This document shows positions 2,812 through 47,754 of a stretch of DNA of 64,000 nucleotides, piece after piece. This DNA comes from a phage, in assembly GCA_020241125.1 (NCBI GenBank), contig GCA_020241125.1_4708.1; one strand, given 5' to 3'. The position numbers and the translations under genes are program-made. A model generated the notes under the pieces. That model had not been told where the DNA came from and ran no database searches. It saw only the letters and a list, made by a program, of their open reading frames with translations. Numbering within the stretch: the first letter of the stretch is position 1; each line of letters starts with the position of its first letter.

Positions 2812-2854
2812 AATTTGTTTCCTTTACAATAAATTGCACATTAGCTAATGCGGC

Positions 2855-2879
2855 TTAAGTGAACCGTCAGCTCACTTAA
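2855..2879 (-). terminator. Hairpin at end of gene 2876..3406
   Basis: TTAAGTGA-accgtcagc-TCACTTAA, 8-bp stem overlapping the stop codon; no clear U-tract. Confidence 0.3.
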
Positions 2880-28797: not shown

Positions 28798-30458
28798 GCG
28801 AACAAGAAAAAGAAGTCGTGACGAATCAGGAAGCCGTTGAGCGTTCAGAGTCGTCCGTTGAAACAACGATTCCGGCAAGTTCCGAGCCTGTTGGTTCCAC
28901 ACAGCAGGAAAGTAAAGACGAAGTAGTGGCTCCAGAAGCAACCCGTGAAGAAGAACCATCACATCCACCGCTGGTCGATTTCTCGAAGGCAACGATACGT
29001 TTCCAATGCGAAGACATTCGTCCTAAGAGTCCGAAGAAAACAAAACGTCAGCCGTTGGTGTTACCGCTGTATTCTCCACGTGTGCAGACAACGTATTACC
29101 GGGAATACATCAACGAAGCAATGGATACCGTGCAAGCCATTGTCGCTCAACGCGGTAAACCGACAGACGAACAATTTGATAAATTCAGTAAAGCGGTGGT
29201 GCAATCGGTTGCTGATGGACAATATCATCCGCGTGGCCCAGCTCACGATCGCGCCTTGGAACGTAAGGGCAGTCAGTGGACTAACGTACCCGTAGACTCA
29301 TCGGGTGTTGGTCGCGTTATTCCTGGCATTCCACAACCGAACCATATCCCTGATGATGTCGAAGCGCCGCTGACAGGAACCGATGCGATCTATTTTGCCA
29401 TCCGTAATACGAAATCAGGTGCGCCTGCGGTAATGCCGTTATGGCATAGCGGTATTAAGCTGCAGTTTAATCCGCCGTCAAATGAACGTGTTGCAATTAT
29501 GCACGAACGTATTGCACGCGATAAAATCCTGGGTGGACGTGATAGTACCGGTTTCCTGTTTTCAGCAACCTCGATTATCACCATGAAGCACGCTATCGAA
29601 TTAGCATTAGAATGCTGCTACATGGCCAACGTACCGAACCTGGATATCCAGCGTTTGAAAGACATTATTCCGGTTACCGATGTTCCAGCGTTATTGCTGA
29701 ACGTGCTGGTAACCATGTACCCGTACGGATATCCTTACGTACAGACCTGCTATCAGAATCCAGAAACCTGCGACTATCGTGTTGAAGATACCGTAAGCTT
29801 TGCGAAACTCTATCAAGTTGACAACAGCGCGATAACCAAACGTATGCGACAGATCATGACCGAAGGTCCGGTCATGACGGATGAACTTTTGCGTGAGTAT
29901 GCAAACGAACTGGGTGAAACAAACTCCCGTACGCTGGATCTGTCCGACAACGGTTCTGTTATCATTGAACTTGAAGTACCGAAGATTTCACGTCAGATCG
30001 CCATGGGCGAACGCTGGTTAAGCGATACCCTGGAAGATCTGCGTGATATTCTATCGCGTCCGTCAATGACCGAAGAAGAGCGTGATCGTGTTATTCGTGA
30101 ACGTCAGTTCTATAGCTGGATGCGTCAGTATGATGCGTGGATCAAATCGATGCACGTGTCAGTAAACGGTACCATGCGTCGTGTAAGCGATGCAGATACG
30201 GCAACGGTATTAGCACAGCTGTCACGAGACAGCGACCTTCGTGAACGTTATATTGACGGGTTGATGCAATTCATCGGTGATTCGACGATTGCGCTCGCAG
30301 CGATGCCTGCCTGGAAATGTCCGAAATGTAATGCCGATATTGCTGACAATCTGCGTGACCAGAAATACTACGATCTGATTGCTTTGGATGTACCCCAGCT
30401 TTTTTTTACCCTAAACTCCGTCCAATCTCTTCAGGAGGGGATGGACGCGGTATTCTAA
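28794..30458 (+). CDS. Hypothetical protein with C-terminal CxxC motif
   Basis: 554-aa ORF; acidic N-terminal tail; WKCPKCNADIADN near C-terminus. Confidence 0.55.
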   Translation: MSEQEKEVVTNQEAVERSESSVETTIPASSEPVGSTQQESKDEVVAPEATREEEPSHPPLVDFSKATIRFQCEDIRPKSPKKTKRQPLVLPLYSPRVQTTYYREYINEAMDTVQAIVAQRGKPTDEQFDKFSKAVVQSVADGQYHPRGPAHDRALERKGSQWTNVPVDSSGVGRVIPGIPQPNHIPDDVEAPLTGTDAIYFAIRNTKSGAPAVMPLWHSGIKLQFNPPSNERVAIMHERIARDKILGGRDSTGFLFSATSIITMKHAIELALECCYMANVPNLDIQRLKDIIPVTDVPALLLNVLVTMYPYGYPYVQTCYQNPETCDYRVEDTVSFAKLYQVDNSAITKRMRQIMTEGPVMTDELLREYANELGETNSRTLDLSDNGSVIIELEVPKISRQIAMGERWLSDTLEDLRDILSRPSMTEEERDRVIRERQFYSWMRQYDAWIKSMHVSVNGTMRRVSDADTATVLAQLSRDSDLRERYIDGLMQFIGDSTIALAAMPAWKCPKCNADIADNLRDQKYYDLIALDVPQLFFTLNSVQSLQEGMDAVF

Positions 30459-30520
30459 TCGATCCGCGATACGGGTTACATGACGGACAACTTGTTCGTA
30501 ATGATGAAAAAATCTGGGAA

Positions 30521-30880
30521 TTGCTATTAGCCCGTAAAGGCGACGGTGGCATGAAACTGAACATCGAAATGGGTATTGCGTACGATACCATGTTTGGCTT
30601 GTACGATCGTGTTAACGACTGGACGCCGTTGAAATGGGTTGCTCAGCATCCCGCTGAAGATCCCTGGGACAGATTGGGGATTAAACCCTTAATCGAAGAT
30701 TATGTCCGATTCGGTATTAAAGAGTTCATGACGCTGGATGCGTTTTTACAAGCACCGTATCCTTACGCGCAAACGGTACTCAAAATCGCACAAGACGAAC
30801 TGCGGAAACGTAGTGCGGTACTGGACGACGATGAGGACAAGTTACGACGAGAAGAAGAACGTTTACGAAACGGAAAATAA
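30521..30880 (+). CDS. Hypothetical small protein
   Basis: 119-aa ORF; start may be internal Met (MKLNIEMG). Confidence 0.45.
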   Translation: MLLARKGDGGMKLNIEMGIAYDTMFGLYDRVNDWTPLKWVAQHPAEDPWDRLGIKPLIEDYVRFGIKEFMTLDAFLQAPYPYAQTVLKIAQDELRKRSAVLDDDEDKLRREEERLRNGK

Positions 30881-30881
30881 A

Positions 30882-31391
30882 ATGGCGAGATTTACCAGTT
30901 TGATTGGGTTGGATATTTGGGAAACACCGGCTGACGTTCGGGTTATTCCTGTTAACACCGTCGGTGTGATGGGACGTGGTCTTGCCAAACAGGCAGCCGA
31001 TCGTGTACCCGGTCTTCTTGAAGCGTACCGTAAGCAATGTCAAGATGGGTTTAAGGTGGGCGAAGTCGTGTCGTATCAACACGGTGATAACGATCAACTC
31101 ACCTACGTGTTGTTTCCATCAAAATCGGATTGGCGTGAAAGAACACGACGCGAGTATATCGTTAACGGTTTACTGGCGTTAAAAGCATGGTTACTGGAGC
31201 TTCAGTTCGAAAGAGACGGCTTCTCATATCGGCGTCCGGCTGAACCGCTGATCGTTGCAATTCCTCCGGTTGGTTCTGGTTGCGGTAATATCGGTTACGG
31301 ACAATCCGAAACAATCCAGCCTCAGTGGGTACGCGCACAAATCAAACAGTATCTTGCCACCGTACCGAACGTTCATTTCTACTTGTTCTAA
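30882..31391 (+). CDS. Macrodomain protein (TARG1/DarG-like ADP-ribose processing fold)
   Basis: MARFTS... start immediately after stop of upstream gene; VIPVNTVGVMGRGLA, KVGEVV and IAIPPVGSGCGNIGY...W align by eye with TARG1 CISEDCRMGAGIA, KSGEVAV and MPRIGCGLDRLQW; the longer ORF-track start (30738) overlaps the upstream gene. Confidence 0.55.
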   Translation: MARFTSLIGLDIWETPADVRVIPVNTVGVMGRGLAKQAADRVPGLLEAYRKQCQDGFKVGEVVSYQHGDNDQLTYVLFPSKSDWRERTRREYIVNGLLALKAWLLELQFERDGFSYRRPAEPLIVAIPPVGSGCGNIGYGQSETIQPQWVRAQIKQYLATVPNVHFYLF

Positions 31392-31407
31392 CGCAACGGT
31401 AACATAA

Positions 31408-31439
31408 CCCTCTCCCTTCCCTGCTGGGTTGGGAGAGGG
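31408..31439. terminator. Conserved palindromic hairpin (member 8) at convergent junction
   Basis: CATAA-CCCTCTCCC-ttCCCtgctGGGtt-GGGAGAGGG-cTTATG. Confidence 0.6.
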
Positions 31440-31456
31440 CTTATGCTGTTATGCTA

Positions 31457-31831
31457 TTAATGTTCGTTCCAGATGGCATCTTCCGGTGGAACAATAGGAT
31501 CTTTCTTCGGCATTGATGGCACTTCATGGCGATGTTTACGGAACTGCCTATCAATAACCTCACGAAGCCGGTACGCATCAACCCATGTTGATTTATTGAA
31601 CAGCTCCAATGTCACAGTTAATCGTGTTCTTGACATTGAATAGCTTTTCTTTGCAATCAAATTGGGATAATTCAGTTGAGCGAACCACGCACGTATTTGT
31701 GCTTCGGTAAAAGCGATGCTGTAATAACTAAGTTTACCGTCATTAAAATCGTGCGCGTGGGTGTAACGTCCAGCGTAACGCCAGACAAGATGCACATTCA
31801 GATCGATCCATGGTGGGGTGGTATCAGCCAT
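31457..31831 (-). CDS. Hypothetical protein
   Basis: 124-aa ORF. Confidence 0.45.
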   Translation of the reverse strand: MADTTPPWIDLNVHLVWRYAGRYTHAHDFNDGKLSYYSIAFTEAQIRAWFAQLNYPNLIAKKSYSMSRTRLTVTLELFNKSTWVDAYRLREVIDRQFRKHRHEVPSMPKKDPIVPPEDAIWNEH

Positions 31832-31840
31832 GTGTTACCC

Positions 31841-32410
31841 TCAACGATTCTTCATCACTTTACCCAGGCTTTCGATATTATCCCAAAAGCGATTTTTACT
31901 TGGCGCATCGCCGACGATAACCGACATCAAATCACGACGTTCGCGACTGATGATGCCTTGTGATTTCCAGATCACCATCGTCCAGCAAGCGGCCAGAACG
32001 AACAGATGGTTAATGCTCGGTTTGGTTTGCGCGATGAACGCAAGCCATGCCCAGATACCGGTGTATACTAGCGTCACTAAAAAGAGCGAGATTGTTGCAA
32101 CGACAACAACGAAGTTTTGGACAGCGGGTTGATTAGCGTTATCATGAATAGCGGTAAGATCAGGAAGATTACCTTCAACTGAACTCGTTTCATCGATTTC
32201 CAATTCTTCGATTTCTTTTCGTGTGTCAGGAGCTAATCCAGCATCATCGAGATGCTTTTTTAACCGCTGTATGCTTAATCGTTGACCGACAGGAATGTTG
32301 ATGTTGTCGTAACTATTAAGCGCATCAACCAGGGAGCGTCCATCAACGAGAACCAAGCTCGCGGTACCCATCGTTTGCGGTTTTATTTTGTAAAGGTCTT
32401 TTACTTTCAT
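31841..32410 (-). CDS. Hypothetical protein with internal hydrophobic segments
   Basis: 189-aa ORF; hydrophobic stretch VVVATISLFLVTLVYTGIWAWLAFI. Confidence 0.5.
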   Translation of the reverse strand: MKVKDLYKIKPQTMGTASLVLVDGRSLVDALNSYDNINIPVGQRLSIQRLKKHLDDAGLAPDTRKEIEELEIDETSSVEGNLPDLTAIHDNANQPAVQNFVVVVATISLFLVTLVYTGIWAWLAFIAQTKPSINHLFVLAACWTMVIWKSQGIISRERRDLMSVIVGDAPSKNRFWDNIESLGKVMKNR

Positions 32411-32431
32411 GTAGACACCACCTCCAACGTG

Positions 32432-35044
32432 TTAAGCGTCCGGCGTAAAATCAAAAGGAATGTCCGTACGAATGATATCATAACGTTTTCCGAGGAAATA
32501 AAACTCTTCGGGAACCTGACCGGGAATAATGCTATCACCGATGAACTGCGGATACGCCCAGATGTACTGAGTGAGTCCTTCGAACATATCCAGGTTATTT
32601 GCGTGGTTACCCATGATACGTTTCCAGAGTTCGCGTTTATACGGCGTTTTAACATCGAAACCATAAAGCGGTGCAAGATCTTCACCAGGAACAAATCCCA
32701 GGTAATAGTGAATCTGACTAACCGGGAAACCAAGCGTATCTCGCGGAATGGTGATCGCTTGCTCAGCTTTGGTGACATGCGTTTCAATAATCCAGTCGTA
32801 ACACTCTGAATAGAACCGATCGAATTTCTCTGGATTATACCACGCTTTGGGAAGATTCAGTTTCTCCGTGAACGCATTCGACATGATCGTCGGTAAGAAC
32901 GGAAGAACACCGGTTTTGATCTGCGTGTATTTCGATTTTACCCGGTTAACCAAATTCCAGCAACTGTATCCTAACTGTTCGTTACAAAACTCAACGTAGA
33001 GATCGTAATCACCGCCGGATAATGGGTTGTTGATATCACCAATGTCTGCAGCGTATTTGTTGGGATATCGGTTATTGAAAGCCAGTTTGGTTTGGTAATC
33101 GTAGATACACGGTTTGTTGTTCGCTGTATTGATCCACCACCAGGGTTCACCCACCTGTACACAAATGTCCTGGACATGAGGGTAAATAATATCGGCAAAC
33201 GCGGTTAACACATCCCCTAACCACGCCATCGCCTGTTGGTTACATGGAGACAGCAACCAGGACGGTGGTGTATATCCGGTTGCTGCGATGTTTCCTTCCC
33301 AATCCTGCTGCGCCCACTCGAACGGGCAGGCTGTACTCATCAATTCGTAACTTAAACTGATGGTGACAGAGAAATGGTGTTTTGCAGCATATGCGGCGAA
33401 AGCTTCATGCCACGCGATACAGGGTGGATTTAATACATCCGTGGTGTTCACCAGTAACTTACCCGCACTTGGCGTCCAGACAGTATCGTAGAAATGCGAC
33501 ATTCCAACATAATGCACTAATTCATCTTGATACCCCGCATAAACCAGGTTCTCAAATACACGCTCTGGCGTGATGTTGTAATGGTCATCGTAAGCGGTTA
33601 TCGCACGAAGTTCGTGTGGTGTACAGTGGTGACGATTAACCGTCATTTCCTGATACACCCCATCGATAGGAAGAATCTCGAGGGTTAAACCGAGGTCGAT
33701 TGGCGTTTCCAGATAGGTCGTTTCAGTCGCACCTTCCTTATAATGTCGAGAACTCATGCTGAACATCAACGATGCTACCGATTCGAGTTCGATAGGCTCG
33801 TCAGCATAGAACCCCGCCATTGCGTCATTGAAATCGATCGTTACGATTGCGCTTCTACCGTCTTCAGAGACATCGGTGGCGTATCGGGTTAATGAGATAT
33901 ACTGACGGCTATCGTCTTTGTGTACGACGGTTAAAACCGGCGGGTTTTCGGTATCTGCAAAGTTACGCTGATCGCCAGTAAACGTGATCTTCGCTTTAAA
34001 GATCAAACCGAATAACGACGTCATGGGATCATACGCAATACAACCGTGATCCAGCGTATCCGTTGTCCGCCATTCTATCCCGACCAACCCGTTAGCGGTA
34101 TGGCATCGCATATACGCATTAAGGACCATGTCTTCACTGACAACCGCGAAGTTCTCTGTTGACTGACCGTTGATAATCCAATACATCGGTTGCCAGAGGT
34201 TACGCGTACCTTTTGCGTAGCGGTAGGTTGGTGCGCCTTTAGGGTTGCCGTTATTGAGATGGAATACGGCAGTACCTTGATAATGGTCGTTCGTATTAAT
34301 CGGAACACTGTAAGCGTCACCGAGGTCCGTACGTTCCACCTTCGTGACCGTTGCGTTTTCAAATAACCCACGCAACGCTGGTAAACCGATATCTTCAGGC
34401 GCGTTTTCTCGACGAATCGCATCCGCGATGCGATGGGCTAAGGCGGGGTAAATAGCTTCACCCTGTTGTAGGTTTGCAAGACCTACAAAGCGATCAGGGT
34501 CGATACCAGCAATCAATAACTCAACATCACCCTTCGTTCTATCGTCGTTAAGATATTTCAGTCCGGTAAGGTCAAGATGCTGAATAAGCGACAACAGGTT
34601 GTATTTACGGTTTTCAACAGTTAGTACAAGATCGCCTGCCCAAACCAAACTTCCCTCATCCGCTGTTACTTTAACGGATTGTCGGCCTGTGGTAGACGTT
34701 GTTGTCGTTTTATTTAATTGTCCTTGTAGGAAGTCGGTTGCGAGGTCAAAGGCAATACCGTAACGGTCAGCGACCGCTTGCATGATTTCACGTAACTGGG
34801 TATCTTCTTCAATGATAATCTTGACAGGTATTCCCAGGAACGCTTTAGCGAGGTCTCGTTTAACCAACGAGACGAATACGGATTTGTAGTATCGGCTTCC
34901 ATCTTTCCCTTTAAAAAGAATGGAGGTTGTTTCGGGTGCCGATAGAACACGTGCAAATTCAACATCGTCGAAAGTAAGAGAAAGTCCGTTTTTCTCGTTG
35001 GTCAATCTTAGTATTTCATTTTGCGCGGTTTCATGTAACTTCAT
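32432..35044 (-). CDS. Receptor-binding protein (tail spike/fibre) with shared N-terminal anchor domain
   Basis: 870 aa; N-terminal ~110 aa (Y..VKRDLAKAFLGIP..I....YGIAFDLATDF) homologous to N-termini of the 40698, 41384 and 46786 products. Confidence 0.55.
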   Translation of the reverse strand: MKLHETAQNEILRLTNEKNGLSLTFDDVEFARVLSAPETTSILFKGKDGSRYYKSVFVSLVKRDLAKAFLGIPVKIIIEEDTQLREIMQAVADRYGIAFDLATDFLQGQLNKTTTTSTTGRQSVKVTADEGSLVWAGDLVLTVENRKYNLLSLIQHLDLTGLKYLNDDRTKGDVELLIAGIDPDRFVGLANLQQGEAIYPALAHRIADAIRRENAPEDIGLPALRGLFENATVTKVERTDLGDAYSVPINTNDHYQGTAVFHLNNGNPKGAPTYRYAKGTRNLWQPMYWIINGQSTENFAVVSEDMVLNAYMRCHTANGLVGIEWRTTDTLDHGCIAYDPMTSLFGLIFKAKITFTGDQRNFADTENPPVLTVVHKDDSRQYISLTRYATDVSEDGRSAIVTIDFNDAMAGFYADEPIELESVASLMFSMSSRHYKEGATETTYLETPIDLGLTLEILPIDGVYQEMTVNRHHCTPHELRAITAYDDHYNITPERVFENLVYAGYQDELVHYVGMSHFYDTVWTPSAGKLLVNTTDVLNPPCIAWHEAFAAYAAKHHFSVTISLSYELMSTACPFEWAQQDWEGNIAATGYTPPSWLLSPCNQQAMAWLGDVLTAFADIIYPHVQDICVQVGEPWWWINTANNKPCIYDYQTKLAFNNRYPNKYAADIGDINNPLSGGDYDLYVEFCNEQLGYSCWNLVNRVKSKYTQIKTGVLPFLPTIMSNAFTEKLNLPKAWYNPEKFDRFYSECYDWIIETHVTKAEQAITIPRDTLGFPVSQIHYYLGFVPGEDLAPLYGFDVKTPYKRELWKRIMGNHANNLDMFEGLTQYIWAYPQFIGDSIIPGQVPEEFYFLGKRYDIIRTDIPFDFTPDA

Positions 35045-35066
35045 TAAAAACCTCAGCCCTTTAGAA

Positions 35067-35708
35067 TTAAATGTACTGCTTACCGCCCACGAAGGAAGTT
35101 AACCAGTTCCCGCTGACGAGTTGTGATACCCAGCCTGGAACGGCTCTACCATTCTGGCTCATGATGTTACCACACCAACCAGGGAATCCGGGACGGATGT
35201 AATAGAAAGTTAAATTGTAGAGATGGCAATTCCATACCGCAACGTTATGTTTACCAGAAACCGCTTTAAAGACAAACGCGACAGGTAACGGAGACGATAA
35301 CAATTCGGTCACAGGGACGGCTGACCAGTTCGCATTCGCGTTCCATGGTTGCCAGGTATGGCTGCGCGAGTCGCAATATACGTTACCGTTGTTACCGCGC
35401 CCACCCGCATTCCACCACAGCGACGGACTCATGTTCTTAAGTGAGGTAAATTGCTGCGGTGGAATATTAGGAATAATAACAGGGTTGGTACCTTGCCCAT
35501 GTTTCTTTTCTTTTGCGTTCACATACCCGCTTATCGATTCGAGGTATTTGACACCAGGATAATTATTCTGGACTTGTGTCGCAATATCACGAACATCGAA
35601 CGTCCAGCAGATCATGGTGTTGTAGTAAGCATCGGTGTTGTCGTACCATGCGTTACCATCTTGTAAACGTGCGCCACTATTCGGTGTTTTATCTGTGTTT
35701 ATAGCCAT
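35067..35708 (-). CDS. Hypothetical Trp/Asn/Gly-rich protein, paralog 1 (conserved C-terminal module)
   Basis: 213 aa; C-terminal ~45 aa (RPGFPGWCGNIMSQNGRAVPGWVSQLVSGNWLTSFVGGKQYI) nearly identical to C-terminus of 35820..36572 product. Confidence 0.55.
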   Translation of the reverse strand: MAINTDKTPNSGARLQDGNAWYDNTDAYYNTMICWTFDVRDIATQVQNNYPGVKYLESISGYVNAKEKKHGQGTNPVIIPNIPPQQFTSLKNMSPSLWWNAGGRGNNGNVYCDSRSHTWQPWNANANWSAVPVTELLSSPLPVAFVFKAVSGKHNVAVWNCHLYNLTFYYIRPGFPGWCGNIMSQNGRAVPGWVSQLVSGNWLTSFVGGKQYI

Positions 35709-35819
35709 AGTGTTGTCCTATACTGCGATGATTGAGATATCGGATGCCGGATGTGTGTTGCCATCAGGTGGTACGTACAGAAACACCCACAGATAAAACA
35801 GTAGCTTCTCTAACTTCAA

Positions 35820-36572
35820 TTAAATTGAAGTTAGATATTGTTTACCTCCAACAAACGACGTTAACCAATTACCTGAAACAAGTTGCGATGCCCAGCCAGG
35901 CACTGCCCTACCGTTCTGGCTCATCACGTTACCTGCCCATCCCGGAAAACCAGGTCGGAAAATATATACTTGAATATGTGTTAAAGCGTTATCATTACCA
36001 CCGCCAACAGCAACGTTACGACTCCCAGATGACGGGAAATATTCTTTTAAGAACAGAGGATCGGTTGCTAATAAAGATGCGGGCCAAGGGTTCGCGGATG
36101 CATCAACATCGAATTCGGTCCATCGCCATTTACGTCCCGTGTCGAACCATGTCGATGTACCACCACCCCTCACGGCAAGATTGCGCGCATCACGGACATT
36201 ATAAATTGATTCGATGTTACGCCATCCACCTTTTGCAGCGTTTGCTGCATAGCAAACCGCATTACCACCATTCTTCTTCTCGTAAACGGTTCGTTTGATA
36301 TGAACACGGTCGATGAACGCTTCACCGTATTTGTTGACGAGCGTTTGTGCGATATCACGAAGATCGTGCATGTGAAAAGCGATGTCTTCGTTATGGAACC
36401 ATGTTGTCTGGTTCCAGACGGTACCGTTTGGTTCGGCACACATCGATCGGATATTGTTGCGTTGATTAATCGCGATAAAACCCATTGTATACCTCGTTCC
36501 TATTCTCAAAAAGGAAATTTCATACGATGACGCCATAGCAGCTCCTCCTTCCCTTACGGGTTGGAGGAGCAT
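35820..36572 (-). CDS. Hypothetical Trp/Asn/Gly-rich protein, paralog 2 (conserved C-terminal module)
   Basis: 250 aa; shares C-terminal module and DVRDIAxxVxN-Y motif with 35067..35708 product. Confidence 0.55.
   Translation of the reverse strand: MLLQPVREGGAAMASSYEISFLRIGTRYTMGFIAINQRNNIRSMCAEPNGTVWNQTTWFHNEDIAFHMHDLRDIAQTLVNKYGEAFIDRVHIKRTVYEKKNGGNAVCYAANAAKGGWRNIESIYNVRDARNLAVRGGGTSTWFDTGRKWRWTEFDVDASANPWPASLLATDPLFLKEYFPSSGSRNVAVGGGNDNALTHIQVYIFRPGFPGWAGNVMSQNGRAVPGWASQLVSGNWLTSFVGGKQYLTSI
36541..36570 (-). terminator. Conserved palindromic hairpin (member 9)
   Basis: CATAGCA-GCTCCTCC-ttCCCttacGGGtt-GGAGGAGC-ATAC. Confidence 0.55.
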
Positions 36573-36578
36573 ACTTAA

Positions 36579-37085
36579 TTACTCGCTGATAACCTCAACG
36601 GAATTGGGATCAGCGATCATCGCACGGTCAGTAGAACAATTGAAGAAGACCATGCCGACACCATCGCCGTTCGAGTTCAGGGTTGAACTTACGTAAGACA
36701 GGGTTGGTTTATTCATGCGGTAGAAGCGTTCGCTGGTTGCGGTATTGAACCCCAGGTCAACGTAGTCTTTCACCGTGGTGTACAACTGTGTGGACTCGAA
36801 AACGGTTACCGGAGAGTCGACGGTAAATTGACTACCTTCGTCTACAACCAGAACTTTATCGTTCCAGATTTCAGTGGTTGAGAACTTCGGTTTCCAATGT
36901 TCGAATTCCTGGGTTGCACCCCAGCAAGAATACACAGCGAGATTGCTGTTCTTCTCAACAGGTTTCAACCCCACCAGTTGTGTCAGGTCTTTATCCAGGT
37001 TCGGTAAGCCTTCCAGCGTAGCACACCCACCCAGAGAAAGTACCATCAACATACCAAGAACGATCGCACAAAGTTTCTTCATCAT
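36579..37085 (-). CDS. Putative lipoprotein
   Basis: 168 aa; N-terminus MMKKLCAIVLGMLMVLSLGGC is a classic signal peptide with lipobox (LGGC). Confidence 0.6.
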   Translation of the reverse strand: MMKKLCAIVLGMLMVLSLGGCATLEGLPNLDKDLTQLVGLKPVEKNSNLAVYSCWGATQEFEHWKPKFSTTEIWNDKVLVVDEGSQFTVDSPVTVFESTQLYTTVKDYVDLGFNTATSERFYRMNKPTLSYVSSTLNSNGDGVGMVFFNCSTDRAMIADPNSVEVISE

Positions 37086-37133
37086 TAGATTTCCTTATGT
37101 GTTAACGGAAGTGACTTCCATAAGGATTGATGA

Positions 37134-40100
37134 TTACTTTTTGAGCGCTTTAAGTTCTTCTTCCATCGCTTCCACTTTTGCCGTAAGCTTCTGTACTTGT
37201 TTGATTAATGGAACCACCAAACGTTCGTACATAACACCTTCGGCGACGAGTCCGTTAGAAGAAACGATAGCGGGGTCATCTTCTTCGGTTGCATCACGCC
37301 AATGCACGTATTGTGGTGCGATCTCACCAACCTCTTCGGCAATCAACCCATACCAACCCCAATCCTTGTTGTCGGCTTCGCAGGTAGAACGATACCAGAC
37401 AGGACGCATCTCCAATACTTTATCCGCTTGTTCATCCGTGATATTCTCGATATCTTTCTTATAGCGCCGCGACGACGTTGAACGAAACACATTGTTGATC
37501 CCAGCAGTAGGACTGATATACATATTAGCCCCGCTGGTTGTAGTGCTAATGTCCCATACCGCAAATCCGCCGTTACTCCCATTTCTCACGACCAACGTAT
37601 TGGCAATAATATCCAGGTTATTGTTGTAACCGGTTAACTGGTTTTCGGTGACAAAATCGGATAAGTTAACGGAGTAGTTCTTGCTGTTATAACAACGACG
37701 CCATCCTGGGCTGTTGGTGCTGCCATTATAGTTGTCGTAGCTATAAATGAACTCGGAGTTGGTTTTCGCACCACTGACGGAAGACGTGGTTGCGGTGGTA
37801 ACACGGATAGTGTAGTTCGTCATCCCGAAGCTAACGACCTCGATAACCGCACCAGCCAGAGGAATAATACCACATTTGGTTTCACTGTCTGGGATGTATG
37901 CGCTATCGGCAGCAGCGAAGGAGCAACGTGCGACCCAGGCACGGGTATTGAATGCACCTTGGTTCTGTAATAACGTAATAAACGATGAGGTCGTAATCGA
38001 GCTGTTATTATCACCTGTGATCAACCAGCCGGTTGGACATGCGGTAGCACCAACGTTTTTCGCTGTTAGCGTGATGTTCTTCGATCCGTCGAAGGCTACG
38101 CCGCTGATGGTACGTGCAGTCTGTAGCTTCGTCGCCGTTGCCGCGTTCCCTGATGTGTTCTGGTTGCCTGTTGTATTCACACCCGGGATACTATCCTTAG
38201 ATGTGTAGATCTGTGCCCATTCCGACCATTTCGCATCGGTTGAATCACGACGTGAACGTAGGTAAGCTGGAGCGTGTGCACCCGAGGTACCTGACCATCC
38301 AATGAGGATTTCACCTTCGCCGACCGATGAAGCGCCTTTAAGATGAACAACGTTACCGTAGGCTGTAGGGTATCCGTTATTGTACGCTTCATACATCTGG
38401 ATACCCGTATTGCTGCCCTGGGTCGCATTAGCTAAAGCGGTAACCCGTCCCTTGGAAGCGAGCACGTTAATGCTAAAGCTAATATCGGTTGTACCGTCAA
38501 AGGCGACCCCATTAATCCTCCGCGCTGTTTGGAGTTTCGTGGCAGTAGCCGCATTACCAGAGGTACTCTGATTGCCTGCTTTGTTCACACCTGGTAAATC
38601 AATGTTGGCGGTTCCATCAAAGGACACGCCCCCTATGGTTCTCGCCGTCTGAAGTTTTGTTGCTGAACCAGCGTTTCCGGAAGTGCTTTGATTACCCGTC
38701 GCGTTGACACCTGGTAGGTTAATGCTAGCAGAACCATCAAAAGAAACTCCACCGATCGTAATAGCTGTTCGCAACTTCGTGGCTGTCGCAGCGTTACCCG
38801 TCGTATTCTGATTACCAGCTGCATTGACGCCAGGTAATGCGATATCAGCTGTGCCATCGAACGCGACACCTCCGATTTTACGGGCGGTTTGTAGCTTGGT
38901 TGCTGTAGCAGCATTACCGCTGGTATTTTGCGTACCGGCTTTATTTACACCAGGAAGATCGATGTTAGCAGAACCATCGAAGCTGACGCCACCTATCGTT
39001 CTTGCAGTAGCAAGTTTAGCGGCTGTAGCAGCGACGTTACCGACTTTTAACCATTCTCCCCATGGACCATCCACACCGTTCCATGATGCCGTTAAACTGC
39101 GCACGTATATGTTTCCTGTACGTACTGTGTAACGTTGTGTTCCACCGAATTGACCGGCTGGGAGCACTTCGATGTAACCTACAGCATTTGCTTCAGGGAA
39201 ATTGTGGGCAGCATCGGCATTCGTTGATGTTTGTTTGGACCAAATACCCACAGACGCTTCAACCGGACCGTAGGTATCCAGATTTGCATCGGTGGGGAGC
39301 TGTCCTCGAAAACGTCGGAATAATGAAGCCGATAACCCCAACGTTGTTTGCATCCCTTCAATGCTTGACTGCGATAGAAGCGCCCGAGCTGTCGACGTGA
39401 TGGCCGCTAAAGCAACCTTATCCGTACCGGTAAAAAACGGGAATTTGTTTGCTGATGTTGCTAAACCTGAAAGGGCGGTCAGTAATGCGTTAAGGGGTTG
39501 TTTCCCGGCTAGCGCGTTAGTCACAGTCGTTGCAAAGTTTGGATCATTACCTAACGCTTGAGCTAACTCGTTAAGCGTATTTAGCGCTTCTGGAGACGAG
39601 TCGATCAGCGACGCGATAGCACGCATCACAAATTCCGTGTTGGCGATCTGTTGACTGCTATCGTTCTCTGCAGCCGTAGGTGCTGCTGGGATACCGGTGA
39701 ACACAGGGTTATTAAGATCCGCCTTAAGGGCGATGAGACGTCTAAGTGCTTCAACATCGACTTTCAGGTTTTCCCATCCGACGAGATAACCATCACCGGT
39801 TGTGTGATAACGGTTGTACCAAAAATCGCCATTAACGCCAAAATAAAATATTCCCTTCTCTTCGTATTGTGGGCCAGAACTGTTCCGTGATGAGCTAATG
39901 TATTTTATTTCGATAAGGCCGTTGAATACCACTCCTGGGATAATTTTGTCGTTTCCAGACGATTGCGATACCTGGTAAGCCCCCGGTGTTGTGGCTCTAA
40001 CCCAAGTCAAGAATTCTGATGTTCCAGCGTTACCGCTAAAACGCTTGACGTCGGTAAGTATCGCACCAAAACCGAACATACCGGGTAAAGCAACTCGCCC

Positions 40101-40691
40101 ATCGGTACGGTCACGAATATCTGTTGCAACAACAGGCAACTGCTTACGAACATCATTAACTGCTTTAGGTGTCGCTGATTTTGTCTCATCGTCGCTATCG
40201 ATATCACTGCTCAGGATGGTCAGTCCTCGAGTATCTGTGGTTGCATCAGGAAGAAACGCGTTATCTAACACCTTAAGCTGTATCGCATCCGTGTTATTAA
40301 CAACAACATACACTTGACAGTTAAGAACGCTGGTTGCGCCTTCGGTAGGCACAGGCTTGTATCTTTCTGGTGCACTGCATACGGCGACCAGAACACCTTG
40401 ATTGTCATACAGACCGATCTCACGTACCCAGAACCCACCTTGACTGGCAGGAATAATACCCTCAACAATAATCCTGGTTGTGTCGTCAACATCAATACGG
40501 ATGTTGGAAACTTCCCCACGATAAACTTCGTGTACAAGTGCTGTTTGGCTAGCATCGGGGGTTGGTGTAGAACCGTTGCCATCACCAACGGCAAAATGCG
40601 TAATTCTTAGTTTCTCACCGTCAGGAAGTAATGCTGCGGTGATACGTTCAGCGCCTTTATCGGTAATGACCGTTTTATAAGTTGTACTCAT
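37134..40691 (-). CDS. Long tail fibre protein with C-terminal intramolecular chaperone (peptidase S74-like) domain
   Basis: 1185 aa; N-terminal region resembles phage tail-fibre N-termini (P2 gpH-like; LIDSSPEALNTLNELAQALGNDPNFATTVTNALAGKQP); about 6 tandem ~38-aa repeats (GGVSFDGSANIDLPGVN...ATATKLQTAR); C-terminus SSRRYKKDIENI...WYGLIAEEVGEIAPQYV...LVVPLIKQVQKL matches S74 chaperone domain pattern. Confidence 0.75.
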   Translation of the reverse strand: MSTTYKTVITDKGAERITAALLPDGEKLRITHFAVGDGNGSTPTPDASQTALVHEVYRGEVSNIRIDVDDTTRIIVEGIIPASQGGFWVREIGLYDNQGVLVAVCSAPERYKPVPTEGATSVLNCQVYVVVNNTDAIQLKVLDNAFLPDATTDTRGLTILSSDIDSDDETKSATPKAVNDVRKQLPVVATDIRDRTDGRVALPGMFGFGAILTDVKRFSGNAGTSEFLTWVRATTPGAYQVSQSSGNDKIIPGVVFNGLIEIKYISSSRNSSGPQYEEKGIFYFGVNGDFWYNRYHTTGDGYLVGWENLKVDVEALRRLIALKADLNNPVFTGIPAAPTAAENDSSQQIANTEFVMRAIASLIDSSPEALNTLNELAQALGNDPNFATTVTNALAGKQPLNALLTALSGLATSANKFPFFTGTDKVALAAITSTARALLSQSSIEGMQTTLGLSASLFRRFRGQLPTDANLDTYGPVEASVGIWSKQTSTNADAAHNFPEANAVGYIEVLPAGQFGGTQRYTVRTGNIYVRSLTASWNGVDGPWGEWLKVGNVAATAAKLATARTIGGVSFDGSANIDLPGVNKAGTQNTSGNAATATKLQTARKIGGVAFDGTADIALPGVNAAGNQNTTGNAATATKLRTAITIGGVSFDGSASINLPGVNATGNQSTSGNAGSATKLQTARTIGGVSFDGTANIDLPGVNKAGNQSTSGNAATATKLQTARRINGVAFDGTTDISFSINVLASKGRVTALANATQGSNTGIQMYEAYNNGYPTAYGNVVHLKGASSVGEGEILIGWSGTSGAHAPAYLRSRRDSTDAKWSEWAQIYTSKDSIPGVNTTGNQNTSGNAATATKLQTARTISGVAFDGSKNITLTAKNVGATACPTGWLITGDNNSSITTSSFITLLQNQGAFNTRAWVARCSFAAADSAYIPDSETKCGIIPLAGAVIEVVSFGMTNYTIRVTTATTSSVSGAKTNSEFIYSYDNYNGSTNSPGWRRCYNSKNYSVNLSDFVTENQLTGYNNNLDIIANTLVVRNGSNGGFAVWDISTTTSGANMYISPTAGINNVFRSTSSRRYKKDIENITDEQADKVLEMRPVWYRSTCEADNKDWGWYGLIAEEVGEIAPQYVHWRDATEEDDPAIVSSNGLVAEGVMYERLVVPLIKQVQKLTAKVEAMEEELKALKK
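38080..39060 (-). repeat. Intragenic tandem coding repeats (~114 bp units) within the tail fibre gene
   Basis: Repeated peptide unit visible in translation; DNA units diverged but periodic. Confidence 0.6.
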
Positions 40692-40697
40692 GGCGTT

Positions 40698-41225
40698 TTA
40701 TCCCGGGTAAATAGTGATGACATCACCGATGACAGTTGCCGCACCGGCGCAAAGATACGCTGGTGATGTATCACGCTGGTTTGTCACGATAAGATCCAAT
40801 TGCCCACGCCAAACCATGGAGGTATTCGCGATGGGAATCGAGATCTTCTTGGAAGTATCGTCACGAAAATTAATGGCGGTAGCAAGGGTAGCTGAATCAA
40901 AATCAACGTCGGGTTCAAAGTTGAAACCGTATTGATCCGAAATAGCTTGAATAACCGCTCTTATGGTTGTTGTTTCAACCGACTCCAAAACGATTTTTAT
41001 CGGTATTCCTAGAAATGCTTTCGCTATATCACGCCGTGTGTAAGTGATAAAACTTTCACCACACCACCTTGTTCCTTCATTTGCTGTGACGATCACTTTT
41101 GCCCTGTTAACACCAGAACTCCCATCCAGGGTTAAAGTGAGATCGGAGTTGCTGAATACACTACTGTTACGTTGGTTTATCAACGTAATAAGTTCGTCTT
41201 TCCATGGTGGGTAAAGTGAACGCAT
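40698..41225 (-). CDS. Short protein carrying only the shared receptor-binding-protein N-terminal anchor domain
   Basis: Start set at ATG 41225 (MRSLYPPWKDE) preceded by GGAGGAGGG; ORF-track start at 41408 would run through the upstream hairpin; product shares RRDIAKAFLGIPIKI...YGFNFEPDVDF with other RBP N-termini. Confidence 0.5.
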   Translation of the reverse strand: MRSLYPPWKDELITLINQRNSSVFSNSDLTLTLDGSSGVNRAKVIVTANEGTRWCGESFITYTRRDIAKAFLGIPIKIVLESVETTTIRAVIQAISDQYGFNFEPDVDFDSATLATAINFRDDTSKKISIPIANTSMVWRGQLDLIVTNQRDTSPAYLCAGAATVIGDVITIYPG

Positions 41226-41338
41226 AAGCGCACCCTCCTCCAACAATCGAATTAATATGCAAAAACGCCTCGAAACAGGAGTGCGATTCGAGGCTAACGT
41301 AAACAGTCTTAACGACCGCATAAAATTCCGCGCATATT

Positions 41339-41371
41339 GCCCCTCTATCCCGACAAAGCGAGATAGAGGGG
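41339..41371 (-). terminator. Palindromic hairpin (member 10)
   Basis: CATATTG-CCCCTCTATC-ccgacaaagcga-GATAGAGGGG. Confidence 0.5.
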
Positions 41372-41383
41372 AGGATAATACGA

Positions 41384-43153
41384 TTATGCTGCTACATATC
41401 CAGGCCAACGTTCTCTTGGCCAGTTTGTTGCGCCCTGTCCAACGTTGTCCTTACCAGAAATTACATTACTTACGTCCCAACCACTAAGATCCTGGTTAAA
41501 TGCGGTGTTGTTACGCATCATGAGGTCGATATTACGTAATGATTGGGTATTCCAGCCGGAAATGTCTTGGTTGAATGCCGTGTTGTAAGCAAACATGTTA
41601 ACAACGTTTTGTAATTTTGAAGTGTTCCAGCCGCTAATATCGCCATTGAACTGCATGCTCGAGAACATACTGCTAGCATCGATAAGACTATCTGTTTTCC
41701 AGTTAACCAGCTTGTTTTCATCAAGTGCGTTGCAACTACTGAACATGTAACTCATGTTGTTAACTTTGGATACATCCCATTTATCTAACCCGTTACCAAC
41801 GAACTCGTAACAAGCTTGGAACATCCAGCTCATGTCGGTAACCTGGCTCACATTCCATTTGCTAAAGTCGAGGTTGAGTTTTGCGCATCCGGAGAAAGTT
41901 TTATACATACTGGTGATACGACTAACATCCCATTCTTGAATGTTAGGATCATTAAGTATAGATAAGAATTGGAACAATCCGTCTAACGACGTCCATTTCT
42001 CTGGAATACGGTTTGGTACTGTACGGAGCGATGAAAGGTTATTGGTTGACGGAGAGCGGAACATACCGTTATCCCAATTTACGATTTCCGTAATGTTGTA
42101 CCCACGGATCGTTTGGCGTCCATTACCATTATACACAGACCCTGTTGCAGTTATTGTATATTCGTTTGTATCAGCATACGTATGTTCAGCCTGTGTAGGC
42201 CACTCACCTATTACATCCCTATTCCCATCACCCCAATCGATGGAAATATTTGTCCAACCATCAAGATCTAGGGTAACGGTCCCGCCATTGGTCTTCAGGA
42301 TGTATTTACCTGCATTGTCGGTATAATAACAAACGATCATCGCACCGTATAGGTTACCAATTTGCCAATCATCCTTTTCTGTTACCGCTATTTGCGCTGT
42401 ACCACGTTGTAAGAAAAGCACCGTACGGTTGTCGTCAGTCTGTAACGCGGTTAATGCTTGAGCTTTGTCGTCGCCGGTAATTTCACCAGCTTCCACTAAA
42501 GCATTTAACATTCTTTCAAAGTATTCGATGGGTAATTGGTGTCCTACAGACATGTCAACTGATGGAAGAATGAGATCATCTAATGCTGCGGCAGTTGCAA
42601 GGACTAATGATCCCTTGGTGGGGTCTGTTTCTTGGAGGTAACGTAGTCCCGTAATCTGGTATGCTTGAATGATTGTAATCAGATCCAGCGTATCGTTAAT
42701 GACCTGTATCTGTAAATGCCCAGACCAAACATAGCTGCTTTCAGCAATTGGTAATTCGACCGCCTGAATACCTGACGTTTCAAAGCTGATCTTTTTATTA
42801 AGATCGGTTTCCAGGAAATCAACCGCGAGATCGAAATTTATACCGTACTTTTCAGCGATGGAATCTACGATGTTTCTGAAAGCAACATCGGTACTTACGA
42901 TAAAACGTAACGGGATTCCTGCAAATGCATTAGAGATATCTCGACGAACATATGTGAGTGACTGCTCGAAGAAATACGGGCTGTTATCTCCAGGCTTGAT
43001 GGTTATCTGGCACACCTCAGGGTGTTCAGCTGGGATGAACGATTCGAATTTAACATCGGATTCTTTCAACGAAAGCTTGTTCTTCCGGTTTACCAACGCC
43101 AGAAGATCGGCTTTCCATCCAGGATAAACTGTAGACATAAGCACTCCAATCAT
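41384..43153 (-). CDS. Receptor-binding protein with DUF285/BspA-like repeats and shared N-terminal anchor
   Basis: 589 aa (start possibly at internal Met MSTVYPGW); N-terminal anchor homologous to other RBPs; C-terminal repeated units FxxxxAFNQDISGWNTxxLxNxxxMF typical of DUF285/BspA-type repeats. Confidence 0.6.
   Translation of the reverse strand: MIGVLMSTVYPGWKADLLALVNRKNKLSLKESDVKFESFIPAEHPEVCQITIKPGDNSPYFFEQSLTYVRRDISNAFAGIPLRFIVSTDVAFRNIVDSIAEKYGINFDLAVDFLETDLNKKISFETSGIQAVELPIAESSYVWSGHLQIQVINDTLDLITIIQAYQITGLRYLQETDPTKGSLVLATAAALDDLILPSVDMSVGHQLPIEYFERMLNALVEAGEITGDDKAQALTALQTDDNRTVLFLQRGTAQIAVTEKDDWQIGNLYGAMIVCYYTDNAGKYILKTNGGTVTLDLDGWTNISIDWGDGNRDVIGEWPTQAEHTYADTNEYTITATGSVYNGNGRQTIRGYNITEIVNWDNGMFRSPSTNNLSSLRTVPNRIPEKWTSLDGLFQFLSILNDPNIQEWDVSRITSMYKTFSGCAKLNLDFSKWNVSQVTDMSWMFQACYEFVGNGLDKWDVSKVNNMSYMFSSCNALDENKLVNWKTDSLIDASSMFSSMQFNGDISGWNTSKLQNVVNMFAYNTAFNQDISGWNTQSLRNIDLMMRNNTAFNQDLSGWDVSNVISGKDNVGQGATNWPRERWPGYVAA
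41416..41956 (-). repeat. DUF285/BspA-like coding repeats (~69 bp period)
   Basis: Repeated SGWN(T/V)S...N...MF units in translation; periodic DNA similarity. Confidence 0.5.
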
Positions 43154-43175
43154 GGGGCGGTAACCGCCCCATCGG

Positions 43176-46100
43176 TTAAATTGTTGGTTTCACGTCGCGT
43201 AATAGGGCAATATAATAGCCTAATCCTCGGAGGATCTCCCCACTCCAGAAACCAAAATACATTCCGTCTCTGCCGAGATTAGTACTATCTGGCGCAGGAC
43301 TCCACCCACCATTCATTACATCGTCAACGGTGTAACGGTTGATGTAGTTCTCAACAATCTCGTTATAAACGTTAACAGCAACAGGATAGCCTTTATCGTT
43401 GGGATGTCCGTACAACATCGCTAACGACGCGCCCGCCAACCATAATCCTGCCATGTGACCAGTAAAGTCATTAGGGATAAAAGCTGGAGGTTTATCCATC
43501 GGAAAATCCGTAGGAGATTGATAAGCGTTTTCCTGTTGATACGTGAACAAGAAATCAATCCAATGACTGATGTAAGTGGTTAACTTCTCGGGGACAGCTA
43601 AACCATGATCGAGCAGTCCAGCATAAAGCCTCACCGCTGAGAAGAAAGCCCTCGGCTGATAACCAGACCATGCTGTCTGATCGCCGAAGTGGTACATCGT
43701 AAAATCGTTGACTTTCGATCCGCTTGGCGCATCCCAACGATCCCACACGTACGCACTTGCACCCGGCCCTAAAACACCGAATTTCTGATGATACCACTGT
43801 TGTGAGTCATACCAGAAATTCACAACATTCTGGATCATGAGGTCACGTCGTTCAGCCGTTACATCCATATCCAGGAAGACCCATGGATGCTGGTAGCCAG
43901 GATAAGGCTGACCACGCCAACTGTCGAACGTCGGTGCGTTAGGGATATAGTTGTTTGAGAACGGAATAATACCTGGAGTATAAGGCAATGGATCTAGACG
44001 CTGGTTAACAATCGTGCAGTCACCAACACGTAACGTACCCTCCGCCTCAAAGGTTGCTTTTAACGTAAACAACATGGTATATCCGTCATCCGTGGCGTAA
44101 GTTGATGGTGGATTGTTGATAGCGTAGAGCTTAAATACCCCTTCAGCGATATCGCCGTCATCAGGCAAGAACAGAATTTCAGTTGAACCATCGCCCCACA
44201 CAGGTGCGGAAGGTTTAGGGTCAGTGCCAGCATGGTTAGGTTGATACCCTGAGAGCGTCCACCCATTCGCCGAAAGTGTCAATGTATTTCTTGCTGTGGT
44301 GGCTGGTAACATCTGCCACCATCGCCAACCATTTGCATCTTCTACACGAACGTTGTAGTCAATCGACGCGAAATAACTGACCTGCCTTACGATCTGTTTT
44401 GCGGTTGGATTGAATTCAAATTGTCCGCCTGCCGCAGTAAGCTGCGCTTTTAAGAACAACCCATCCCAGGAATCTTCCACTGCTTCGCTGAATTCTGTTG
44501 TGATGGCGACATCATCTTTCCAGCCGACTTTATCGGCCGATATCAACACAGAACCTGTAACAGCATCACCGGTTGACGCTGAAGCTTCATCAACCGCATC
44601 AGCAGGAATCAACGAGCCTATTTTGAAATCCCATTCTTTCGGTTCAGCGCTGGAAGGTAATACCAGCTTGTACGTTTTGGCTTTCGCTTCGGTTTTGTCC
44701 AAAGAAAGCGATAATGAGATCTCAACTGGAATTGCAACGCCTGCTGTATCTTTACCTCCGCAGGTTACACGAAGAATTGAATCACGATTGACGCGGAACG
44801 GAATGGCCTGCTGTTCAAGGTAAATTTGTGCTGAAGATGCTTGAATCACGATCCAACCATCGGTATCACGTGTGATTGTGAACGGCGCTTTCGACGGGTA
44901 TGTATACGTGTAAGCGATACCGTCGGTGTCGTAACGATCGGTTCCTTTTACTTGACGGAAGAACTTATCGTTAGCGTCAATACGGGTATATTCTTCAATC
45001 GTAAACAAAGACGCCTTGTACGCTTTCTGATAACGCTCCTGCTGCGTTAAACGGTATAAGGTGTAGGCTGCTTCACAAAACCACTGTTCAGCGTCTGACG
45101 CGTTTCCCATGTAGTCTCTGGTGACCGGCACCTGGATCGGTCGGTTATGCTGACACTCGTTCGTTTTGATAAGGTATCCGCCATATTCAACAGGAACACG
45201 CGGTGCCCATGCAACCAAGTAAGAACCGCTGACGGATTTATTTTTGAGTACGATAGTACCTACTTCATCGTCAGTACACGCTTCAAGATCGTCCCCGTCA
45301 GCACTTACGTAACGTTTTGTGCGTAACGCAACTTTCTCGATAGGGAACACCGTACCCTTTGTATCCCAGTCAATCGTCCCATCATCATTGGTTTTGAACA
45401 CATCGGCGTTCAAATTCTGCCAGCCGAGTTTACCTTCATAGACCTGAACAACAAGATCCATGTATTCCCCGAACGTTGGTGCCCCATGTGTTATTTTCCC
45501 GATACCGTTGGTGAATGTAACCGCTGTGTCATGGAAACCCCCGTGTGTTGGGTAATCGTCTTTTGCAAGAGGATAATGAGCCAACACCGGTTGCTTACCA
45601 TTAACGATCCAGTTAGCGATCCAGCGTGTCGGTGTATCCGGTGGTTCAAGGCCTGCGTAGAACGCTTTTATATACGCATCGAACGATGCCTCTGCTAATG
45701 TGAGATAATGCGCTTTAAGCTTGGTGTTGTCCGTTGTATGACTGAATATACCCGCACCCAGAATTAACAACGACTGTCCTTCTGTTGTTGCGTCACCATC
45801 CGGTTGTGCTTCTTGTCGTGTTGCTGCAATGAAATGACGGTTGTTTACCATGACCCCGCTTTCATTTAACACGTAATGATCGGTTTCTGGGTCGGTAAAC
45901 GTTCCTGTGTTTCGGGTTAAGAATCTTGCATGGCCATAACCAACGAAATTAACCGGCGACGCTGTAATCATCCATTTACCGATAAGTTGAGCAACATCAT
46001 TATAACGCTCGGATGCGGTGATTTGTTTCACGTACCAGTCTTTATGGTTAAATGTCCAAAGCAGGAAGTAATAAGTTGTATCGATTTCCATCACTGGGAA

Positions 46101-46772: not shown

Positions 46773-46785
46773 TATTTACTCCACC

Positions 46786-47616: not shown

Positions 47617-47665
47617 GCTGACCTCATAGATGATCGTTGATAGGAAAGAAACCTAATTCATACCA

Positions 47666-47733
47666 TGGGAGCCTCAAAAAAAAAAAACGAAAAAATAGGA
47701 AAACGGTGTTCATCCTTTTTAGGGATGAACACC
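47666..47733 (-). terminator. Intrinsic (rho-independent) terminator
   Basis: Perfect 11-bp stem GGTGTTCATCC/GGATGAACACC (47705..47733) followed on the minus-strand transcript by a long U-tract (plus-strand A-run 47666..47700); lies just downstream of gene 47755..48330. Confidence 0.8.
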
Positions 47734-47754
47734 GCGTACCGTTATATCGAACGA

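Follow-up and report, generated by a model that had tools for sequence, protein, structure and literature searches.

Gp87-family paralogues of a Goslar-like jumbo phage as candidate accessory adhesins with a predicted carbohydrate-binding-type body and a conserved C-terminal module

The stretch of phage DNA analyzed here (contig GCA_020241125.1_4708.1 of GenBank assembly GCA_020241125.1; 64,000 nucleotides, hereafter the window) contains two adjacent genes on the minus strand, termed A and B, whose products each consist of a body predicted to fold as a beta-sandwich of the carbohydrate-binding module (CBM) type and a short module of nearly the same sequence in both. With a nucleotide identity of 94% to Escherichia phage vB_EcoM_Goslar across 79% of the region 30000-48000, and with Goslar as the sole match when that region was searched against phage records, the window is that of a Goslar-like nucleus-forming jumbo phage (chimallivirus); Goslar itself is a 237-kb nucleus-forming chimallivirus that infects Escherichia coli. 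We give about an even chance to the proposal that A and B are interchangeable accessory adhesins of this Goslar-type phage, in which CBM-like specificity heads are carried on a common docking module. On homology grounds, A is the orthologue of an unannotated Goslar protein, gp87, and B is a second family member without counterpart in the sequenced Goslar genome. The two genes and their parts are as follows.

35067-35708, minus strand: gene A, 213 aa, called from its open reading frame (ORF) and homology; orthologue of Goslar gp87 (Goslar_00087 / QBO63880.1 / YP_009820772.1, annotated as a hypothetical protein)
35196-35708, minus strand: body of A, residues 1-171; predicted to form a beta-sandwich similar to type-B carbohydrate-binding modules
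35070-35195, minus strand: conserved C-terminal module of A, residues 172-213, from the translation, RPGFPGWCGNIMSQNGRAVPGWVSQLVSGNWLTSFVGGKQYI
35820-36485, minus strand: gene B, 221 aa if translated from the probable start MGFIAINQ; the longest ORF extends to 36572 (250 aa)
35958-36485, minus strand: body of B, residues 1-176; predicted beta-sandwich fold as in A
35823-35957, minus strand: conserved C-terminal module of B, from the translation, RPGFPGWAGNVMSQNGRAVPGWASQLVSGNWLTSFVGGKQYLTSI

Alignment with BLASTP identifies A and B as paralogues, with 38% identity over the full length (E 6e-35). In the shared module, RPGFPGW(C/A)GN(I/V)MSQNGRAVPGW(V/A)SQLVSGNWLTSFVGGKQY(I/L), 38 of 42 aligned residues are identical, and in the bodies 41 of 168 (24%). 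The N-terminal parts, described in an earlier note on this DNA as divergent, have indeed diverged, but they are homologues of the same predicted fold and not unrelated heads. The same note's observation that a near-identical module is encoded by diverged DNA is borne out, with 91 of 126 nucleotides (about 72-73%) and 14 of 42 third codon positions identical. By the Nei-Gojobori method, the proportions of synonymous (pS) and nonsynonymous (pN) differences in the module are 0.93 and 0.08, respectively, and pN in the body is 0.56. Synonymous sites are thus saturated and yet the protein is kept, which points to long-term purifying selection on the module and not to a recent conversion in the window genome. 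Among orthologues, dN/dS is 0.02-0.09 for the module and 0.04-0.17 for the body. The module is under purifying selection across deep divergence, as the earlier note had supposed: it is the best-conserved stretch even in members only 21-26% identical overall, the motifs F-P-G, P-G, S-Q, and G.WL being invariant or nearly so in the distant ones. It can be read as two 14-residue half-repeats, GFPGWAGNVMSQNG and AVPGWASQLVSGNW, each with a PGW. The richness of the two proteins in Trp, Asn, and Gly is also real, these residues making up 5.2, 11.3, and 8.9% of A and 4.5, 9.0, and 10.4% of B, against 2.1, 5.4, and 6.6% in neighboring proteins.

The bodies of A and B, each of about 170 residues, share one predicted fold. 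The closest solved structures, on both of which the sandwich can be superposed, are 7VBO (CBM96) and 8WAB (a related module), followed by members of CBM15, CBM35, CBM36, and CBM6, all at only 6-10% identity in the structural alignments. 7VBO, the founding CBM96 member, is a type-B module that binds alginate and has an extended groove (PMC9971899); 8WAB, annotated as a DNRLRE domain, binds chondroitin sulfate. Both come from polysaccharide lyases, and the ligands of both are acidic polysaccharides. Unlike these modules, which are appended to enzymes, A and B are free-standing and bear the extra Gly/Pro/Trp module. The predicted resemblance fits a carbohydrate-binding role, but not membership of a CBM family. 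No match to A or B was found in Pfam (E<=0.1), PHROG, NCBIfam (E<=1), or the PDB sequences, and longer members of the family likewise carry no sequence annotation. Specifically, Pfam gave no match to GP38, Caudo_TAP (PF02413), or DUF7941 (PF25613), Caudo_TAP being present instead in a separate Goslar-type gene, gp89. A hydrolytic function, which the earlier note had offered as an option, is not supported: each protein comprises a single CBM-like domain plus the module, Pfam, PHROGs, and NCBIfam detect no catalytic domain, and the folds that match best are those of non-catalytic modules. Within the module, the predicted local distance difference test (pLDDT) score falls below 50 at residues 176-207 of A and 194-208 of B, with the last strand confidently predicted in both (209-212 in A).

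The orthologue of A has been detected as a protein. Mass spectrometry of CsCl-purified Goslar virions recorded gp087 with 4 peptides and 28.6% coverage, at low, mid, and high estimates of 12.7, 19, and 30 copies per virion (Table S4 of 10.64898/2026.04.21.720040). The N-terminal peptide AISTDKTPNSGAR is among those listed there, which confirms the start codon of A (10.64898/2026.04.21.720040). Thus, the earlier caveat that the proteins might not be expressed is rejected for A through its orthologue. In the same preparation, gp88 was estimated at ~737 copies, gp89 (Tfa) at ~52, gp90 (fibre) at ~43, and gp86, gp85, gp92, and gp93 at ~4.5-5 each (10.64898/2026.04.21.720040). The peripheral baseplate of Goslar is largely unmodelled (10.64898/2026.04.21.720040), so that a virion-attached gp87 could lie in an unmodelled region.

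Genes A and B lie inside a run of late structural genes, in the order tail fibre, lipoprotein, B, A, and gp86 orthologue along the minus strand. Gene A is 95.8% identical to Goslar gp87 (97.7% to the copy in the related locus L008) and has the same neighbors, gp88 and gp86, whereas B is a 38%-identical paralogue. The flanking genes are as follows.

37134-40691, minus strand: tail fibre, 1185 aa, with Pfam matches to Phage_tail_fib (N-terminus), Phage_fiber_2, and Peptidase_S74, the last being a C-terminal S74 intramolecular chaperone
36579-37085, minus strand: predicted lipoprotein, 168 aa, orthologue of Goslar gp88, with a signal peptide and LSLGG before the lipobox Cys; matches phrog_9559
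32432-35044, minus strand: protein of 870 aa with DUF7941, NCTSP_N, and TIM-barrel_NCTSP domains (Pfam E 1.6e-43, 1.3e-10, and 3.4e-85), orthologue of Goslar gp86

The 870-aa protein is 99% identical to Goslar gp86, which the Goslar preprint classes among the DUF7941 filament proteins and credits with carbohydrate-binding or hydrolase domains (10.64898/2026.04.21.720040). Further DUF7941 proteins are encoded beyond the fibre in the same run, the PF25613 matches among the neighbors of A and B falling at 32432-35044, 40698-41408, 41384-43153, and 46786-47616. A and B therefore stand among fibre and DUF7941 host-recognition genes; this setting and the virion detection of the A orthologue lend partial support to the reading of the earlier note (an attachment or assembly module with variable heads, possibly fibre-tip adhesins). 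Compared with Goslar, the window has an additional gene for a 589-aa protein with DUF7941 and DUF285 (BspA-type leucine-rich repeat, LRR) domains (41384-43153, minus strand). Its fibre ends in the S74 intramolecular chaperone, and that of Goslar has a P1 S-like tip with a separate Tfa gene. Gene content and domain matches indicate a mosaic of receptor-binding modules across the whole locus.

The gene preceding the gp87-family gene, in Goslar-like loci where the region is present, is that of the lipoprotein, whose signal peptide and lipobox (MMKKLCAIVLGMLMVLSLGG followed by C) lie in the gp88 orthologue at 36579-37085 on the minus strand. A lipoprotein among receptor-binding genes recalls superinfection exclusion of the T5 Llp type. 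In the Goslar preprint, gp88, with its ~737 copies, is among the most abundant "virion-associated" proteins (10.64898/2026.04.21.720040); it might alternatively have co-purified on membrane vesicles.

Comparison with related loci (given as L numbers, and family proteins as P numbers) reveals two positions for family genes: slot 1, after the lipoprotein gene and its leader, and slot 2, before gp86. They are occupied as follows.

Window and L006: B in slot 1, A in slot 2
L005: third type, C (P0003; 46% identical to A and 40% to B), in slot 1; disrupted A in slot 2
L004: B-like copy in slot 1; slot 2 none (no A, gp86, or fibre)
Goslar and ten further Goslar-like contigs (L008, L010, L014-L021): remnant of C in slot 1, A in slot 2

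Every locus examined retains at least one intact family member, and which member is retained varies. From these occupancies, slot 1 is an exchangeable, dispensable cassette that holds B, C, or a deletion remnant. The remnant is identical in all single-copy loci, with the distal spacer fused directly to the initial 35 nucleotides of C (ATGGCGATAGCGCGAACTATAGGGTTCACGTCCAG abutting CACGCATCC; L001 8759-8800, corresponding to Goslar 97798-97839), and yields a mini-ORF of 23 codons upstream of gp87. Its identity throughout indicates one ancestral deletion in a two-copy phage. Goslar has one copy and a 35-nt remnant of a deleted C-type paralogue, whereas the window has an intact second copy of type B. 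L005, where C is intact, has an A copy (2441-3082) that begins with GTG, is interrupted by an in-frame stop at codon 98, and has Arg in place of a Gly of the conserved module; this A is an apparent pseudogene, with sequencing error as the other possibility. Between the A genes of the window and L006, dS is 2.0 in the body and 0.04 in the module, indicative of a recombination breakpoint at the body/module junction. In addition, the A modules of Goslar and L008 contain conversion tracts of ~50 nucleotides of B/C type.

Fixed partnerships between family members and neighboring genes were considered and given up. A cognate pairing of B with the DUF7941-DUF285 protein held in the first six loci but fails in L014-L016, which have the DUF285 protein and no B; an obligate pairing of A with gp86 is weakened by L005, in which gp86 is intact and A disrupted; and a tie of B to the S74 fibre type breaks down with L018, which lacks B, and L004, whose B-like copy occurs without a fibre. 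In L018, the lipoprotein gene comes immediately after the fibre gene and a separate assembly-protein gene is absent; the S74 type of this fibre is deduced from the arrangement, no S74 match being on record. In the IMG/VR contig L010 (3865-5388), the tail-fibre gene is apparently missing between the gp91-like and lipoprotein genes, which may reflect a true deletion or an error of assembly.

The gp87 family is defined by homology to Goslar gp87 along the full length and by a beta-sandwich body with the module FPGW...NG..VPGW.SQL..GNWL...G.K.YL after it; both A and B belong to it. A profile built from eight members and searched against 1.84 billion representative proteins returned 11 clusters, all of the gp87 family, and word-indexed searches returned six. 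Among 50,697 phage records, the only carriers are Goslar, Serratia phage PCH45, and Salmonella phage SPLA10, and IMG/VR added three more Goslar-like contigs. The isolated carrier phages all infect Enterobacterales (E. coli, Salmonella, and Serratia). A hidden Markov model (HMM) of the module, run against every ORF in the window and in the Goslar, PCH45, SPLA10, L004, and L007 loci, matched family members only. The idea that the module mimics the linker of DUF7941 proteins was dropped on the same result, nothing outside the family being found in the window, Goslar gp20-39 and gp78-92, PCH45, SPLA10, L004, or L007. In the long forms (316-370 aa), the module is followed by an additional domain, of which there are two unrelated kinds; the module accordingly stands at the C-terminus in short members and between domains in long ones. 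In PCH45, SPLA10, and L013, the family gene comes immediately after a fibre gene of the S74 type, and in L007 it adjoins gp24-, gp23-, and gp22-like genes. The gene for P0007 (218 aa, L012 10001-10657) adjoins thymidylate synthase and many small non-structural genes, which rules out universal synteny with tail genes. A gp92-like protein of 1518 aa is encoded 7 kb upstream of it.

If A and B are accessory adhesins, the body would be the specificity-bearing head, which diverges and is swapped by recombination, and the 42-residue Gly/Pro/Trp-rich module, with its two half-repeats and final beta-strand, would become ordered only upon binding and fasten the head to a conserved virion component. Candidate anchors are the unmodelled peripheral baseplate, the fibres, and the DUF7941 filament apparatus. 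The presence of two copies would then provide two glycan specificities on a single docking system. More tentatively, the module may be a new chimallivirus-specific plug that clips CBM heads to the peripheral baseplate or the DUF7941 "fibre cloud," with its DNA acting as the recombination joint, a version that we consider possible but doubtful.

Two further known systems bear comparison. The T2/S16-type gp38 adhesins and the Tfa proteins of P2, Mu, and lambda are likewise small, have their genes after a fibre gene, pair a conserved with a variable part, and remain virion-bound. The Tfa of Goslar, gp89, was present in the virion preparation at ~52 copies. A and B differ from both in having no Pfam GP38 or Caudo_TAP domain, in their CBM-type sandwich, and in carrying the conserved element at the opposite end of the protein. 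The DUF7941 filament proteins of Goslar (gp22, gp23, gp86, and gp92) resemble A and B in belonging to the same locus and in combining a conserved assembly element with variable carbohydrate-binding, hydrolase, or LRR parts, and a disordered segment in them has been proposed to dock on another protomer (10.64898/2026.04.21.720040). Unlike them, A and B contain no DUF7941 domain, their module has no detectable similarity to any DUF7941 protein in the searched loci, and their conserved element is C-terminal or internal.

Several points weigh against the accessory-adhesin proposal. Classical receptor-binding proteins have an N-terminal anchor, and the conserved part of the A/B family is C-terminal or inter-domain. 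The beta-sandwich is a common fold, with identity to CBMs of just 6-10% and no CBM HMM match, and dN/dS gives no sign of diversifying selection in the body. One member, P0007, is encoded among non-structural genes. In the Goslar virion preparation, thymidylate synthase reached ~20 copies, level with gp87, and E. coli proteins were present too (10.64898/2026.04.21.720040), so that gp87 may have co-purified. Furthermore, gp87 is absent from the cryo-electron microscopy (cryo-EM) model and from the text of the preprint, appearing only in the mass-spectrometry table (10.64898/2026.04.21.720040). Finally, the docking partner and ligand are only inferred, and B is known from its sequence alone.

The main rival proposal, which we judge unlikely, assigns ligand binding to the module itself, as a Trp/Asn/Gln-rich loop that recognizes a conserved Enterobacterales surface (the inner core of lipopolysaccharide, enterobacterial common antigen, or peptidoglycan), with the sandwich as a drifting scaffold. 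In favor of this proposal, Trp, Asn, Gln, Ser, and Gly abound in the module, as is typical of sugar-binding sites; the final strand of the module rejoins the sandwich, so that the module may be a long excursion from the domain and not a free tail; and the restriction of the isolated carriers to Enterobacterales and the internal position of the module in the long forms are also compatible with such a role. However, in phage adhesins the parts in contact with the receptor are as a rule the most variable, and recombination swaps the body while the module stays with the downstream genes, which is the pattern expected of an anchor. Moreover, the purifying selection on the bodies (dN/dS 0.04-0.17) argues that they are not mere scaffolds.

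Somewhat less likely again, in our estimation, is a role for A and B in assembly, as factors or chaperones acting on the neighboring fibre or DUF7941 proteins, with small amounts of A and B co-purifying with virions. Their position just downstream of fibre genes is the usual place of Tfa/gp38-type proteins, the copy number of gp87 is comparable with that of obvious contaminants, and gp87 was not seen in the cryo-EM model. On the other hand, neither Caudo_TAP nor another chaperone signature is found in them, and the CBM-like fold is atypical of chaperones. A Tfa (gp89) is already encoded by Goslar, and the fibre of the window ends in an S74 chaperone of its own; the family persists in L004, which has neither fibre nor gp86, and beside gp86 in L005 despite the disrupted A. 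As for recent gene conversion without constraint, or a dead copy, as the source of the C-terminal identity, the ~50-nt B/C-type tracts in the A genes of Goslar and L008, the A pseudogene of L005, and the deletion of C in the Goslar clade show that such events do occur in relatives, but in the window genome this explanation is highly improbable given modules of 72-73% nucleotide identity with saturated synonymous sites (pS 0.93) and pN of 0.08, conservation of the module in members 21-26% identical overall, two intact genes, and detection of the A orthologue as a protein.

With respect to the gene models, both ORFs of the adjacent pair reported earlier are present, at 213 aa for A, but the 250 aa ascribed to B are those of a maximal ORF. 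The probable start of B is the ATG at 36485, giving a product of 221 aa. The first 12 codons of the 250-aa ORF overlap a stable hairpin; its codons 1-29 correspond to a leader that is non-coding in Goslar and L004, in both of which the frame is broken, although in the window it is open and in frame with B; and the relatives P0004 and P0005 and the L006 gene are called from MGF (MGFIAINQ). On these comparative grounds, the N-terminal 29 codons were rejected as coding. An ATG at 36536, upstream of 36485, has a strong Shine-Dalgarno sequence, and a 238-aa isoform of B may therefore be made from it. The intergenic segments are as follows.

36486-36578, minus strand: conserved leader between the lipoprotein gene and slot 1, probably non-coding
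35709-35819, minus strand: spacer between B and A

The window segment 36482-36578 is 95% identical to the Goslar non-coding spacer, and 35761-36481 has no Goslar counterpart. The leader hairpin spans 30 nucleotides (36541-36570; GCTCCTCC AA CCC GTAA GGG AA GGAGGAGC), with a folding free energy (dG) of -25.4 kcal/mol and a z score of -4.85. Its interior (AACCCGTAAGGGAA) is exactly reverse-complemented in L006 (9131-9180), and L004 (6215-6270) has a different, stronger hairpin at the matching position; thus, downstream of the lipoprotein gene the structure is kept while the sequence flips. The leader was also considered as a repeated promoter motif, but its TATG-containing motif (CATCGTATGAAAT) is not enriched, with 19 matches in the window vs 28 expected; scans for sigma-70 promoters and terminators were uninformative. 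At the other end of B, a perfect palindrome with 13-bp arms (35809-35835) is centered on the stop codon. Its central base is T in the window (TAA stop) and A (AAA) in L006 and the P0004 cluster, where B reads through into a 34-aa extension that includes a hydrophobic stretch (KLKLEKLLFYLWVFLYVPP...).

Small phage host-recognition accessories with a carbohydrate-binding-type fold and modular exchange are known; what is new here is the gp87 family, its candidate docking motif, and the C-terminal or internal position of that motif. Goslar serves as the E. coli model for nucleus-forming jumbo phages, and its host-recognition apparatus, made up of the peripheral baseplate, fibres, and DUF7941 filaments, is the least resolved part of the particle. 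The hypothetical protein gp87 and its paralogues become a concrete candidate for an accessory glycan-binding component, with a domain boundary and a candidate docking motif, and natural variants (B plus A, C plus a disrupted A, A plus a C remnant, and B alone) are available for comparison of adsorption and host range. Given a small family and an inferred function, we offer this as a useful lead and not a surprise. If the module does act as a plug, host range in these phages would be tuned by a two-slot cassette system.

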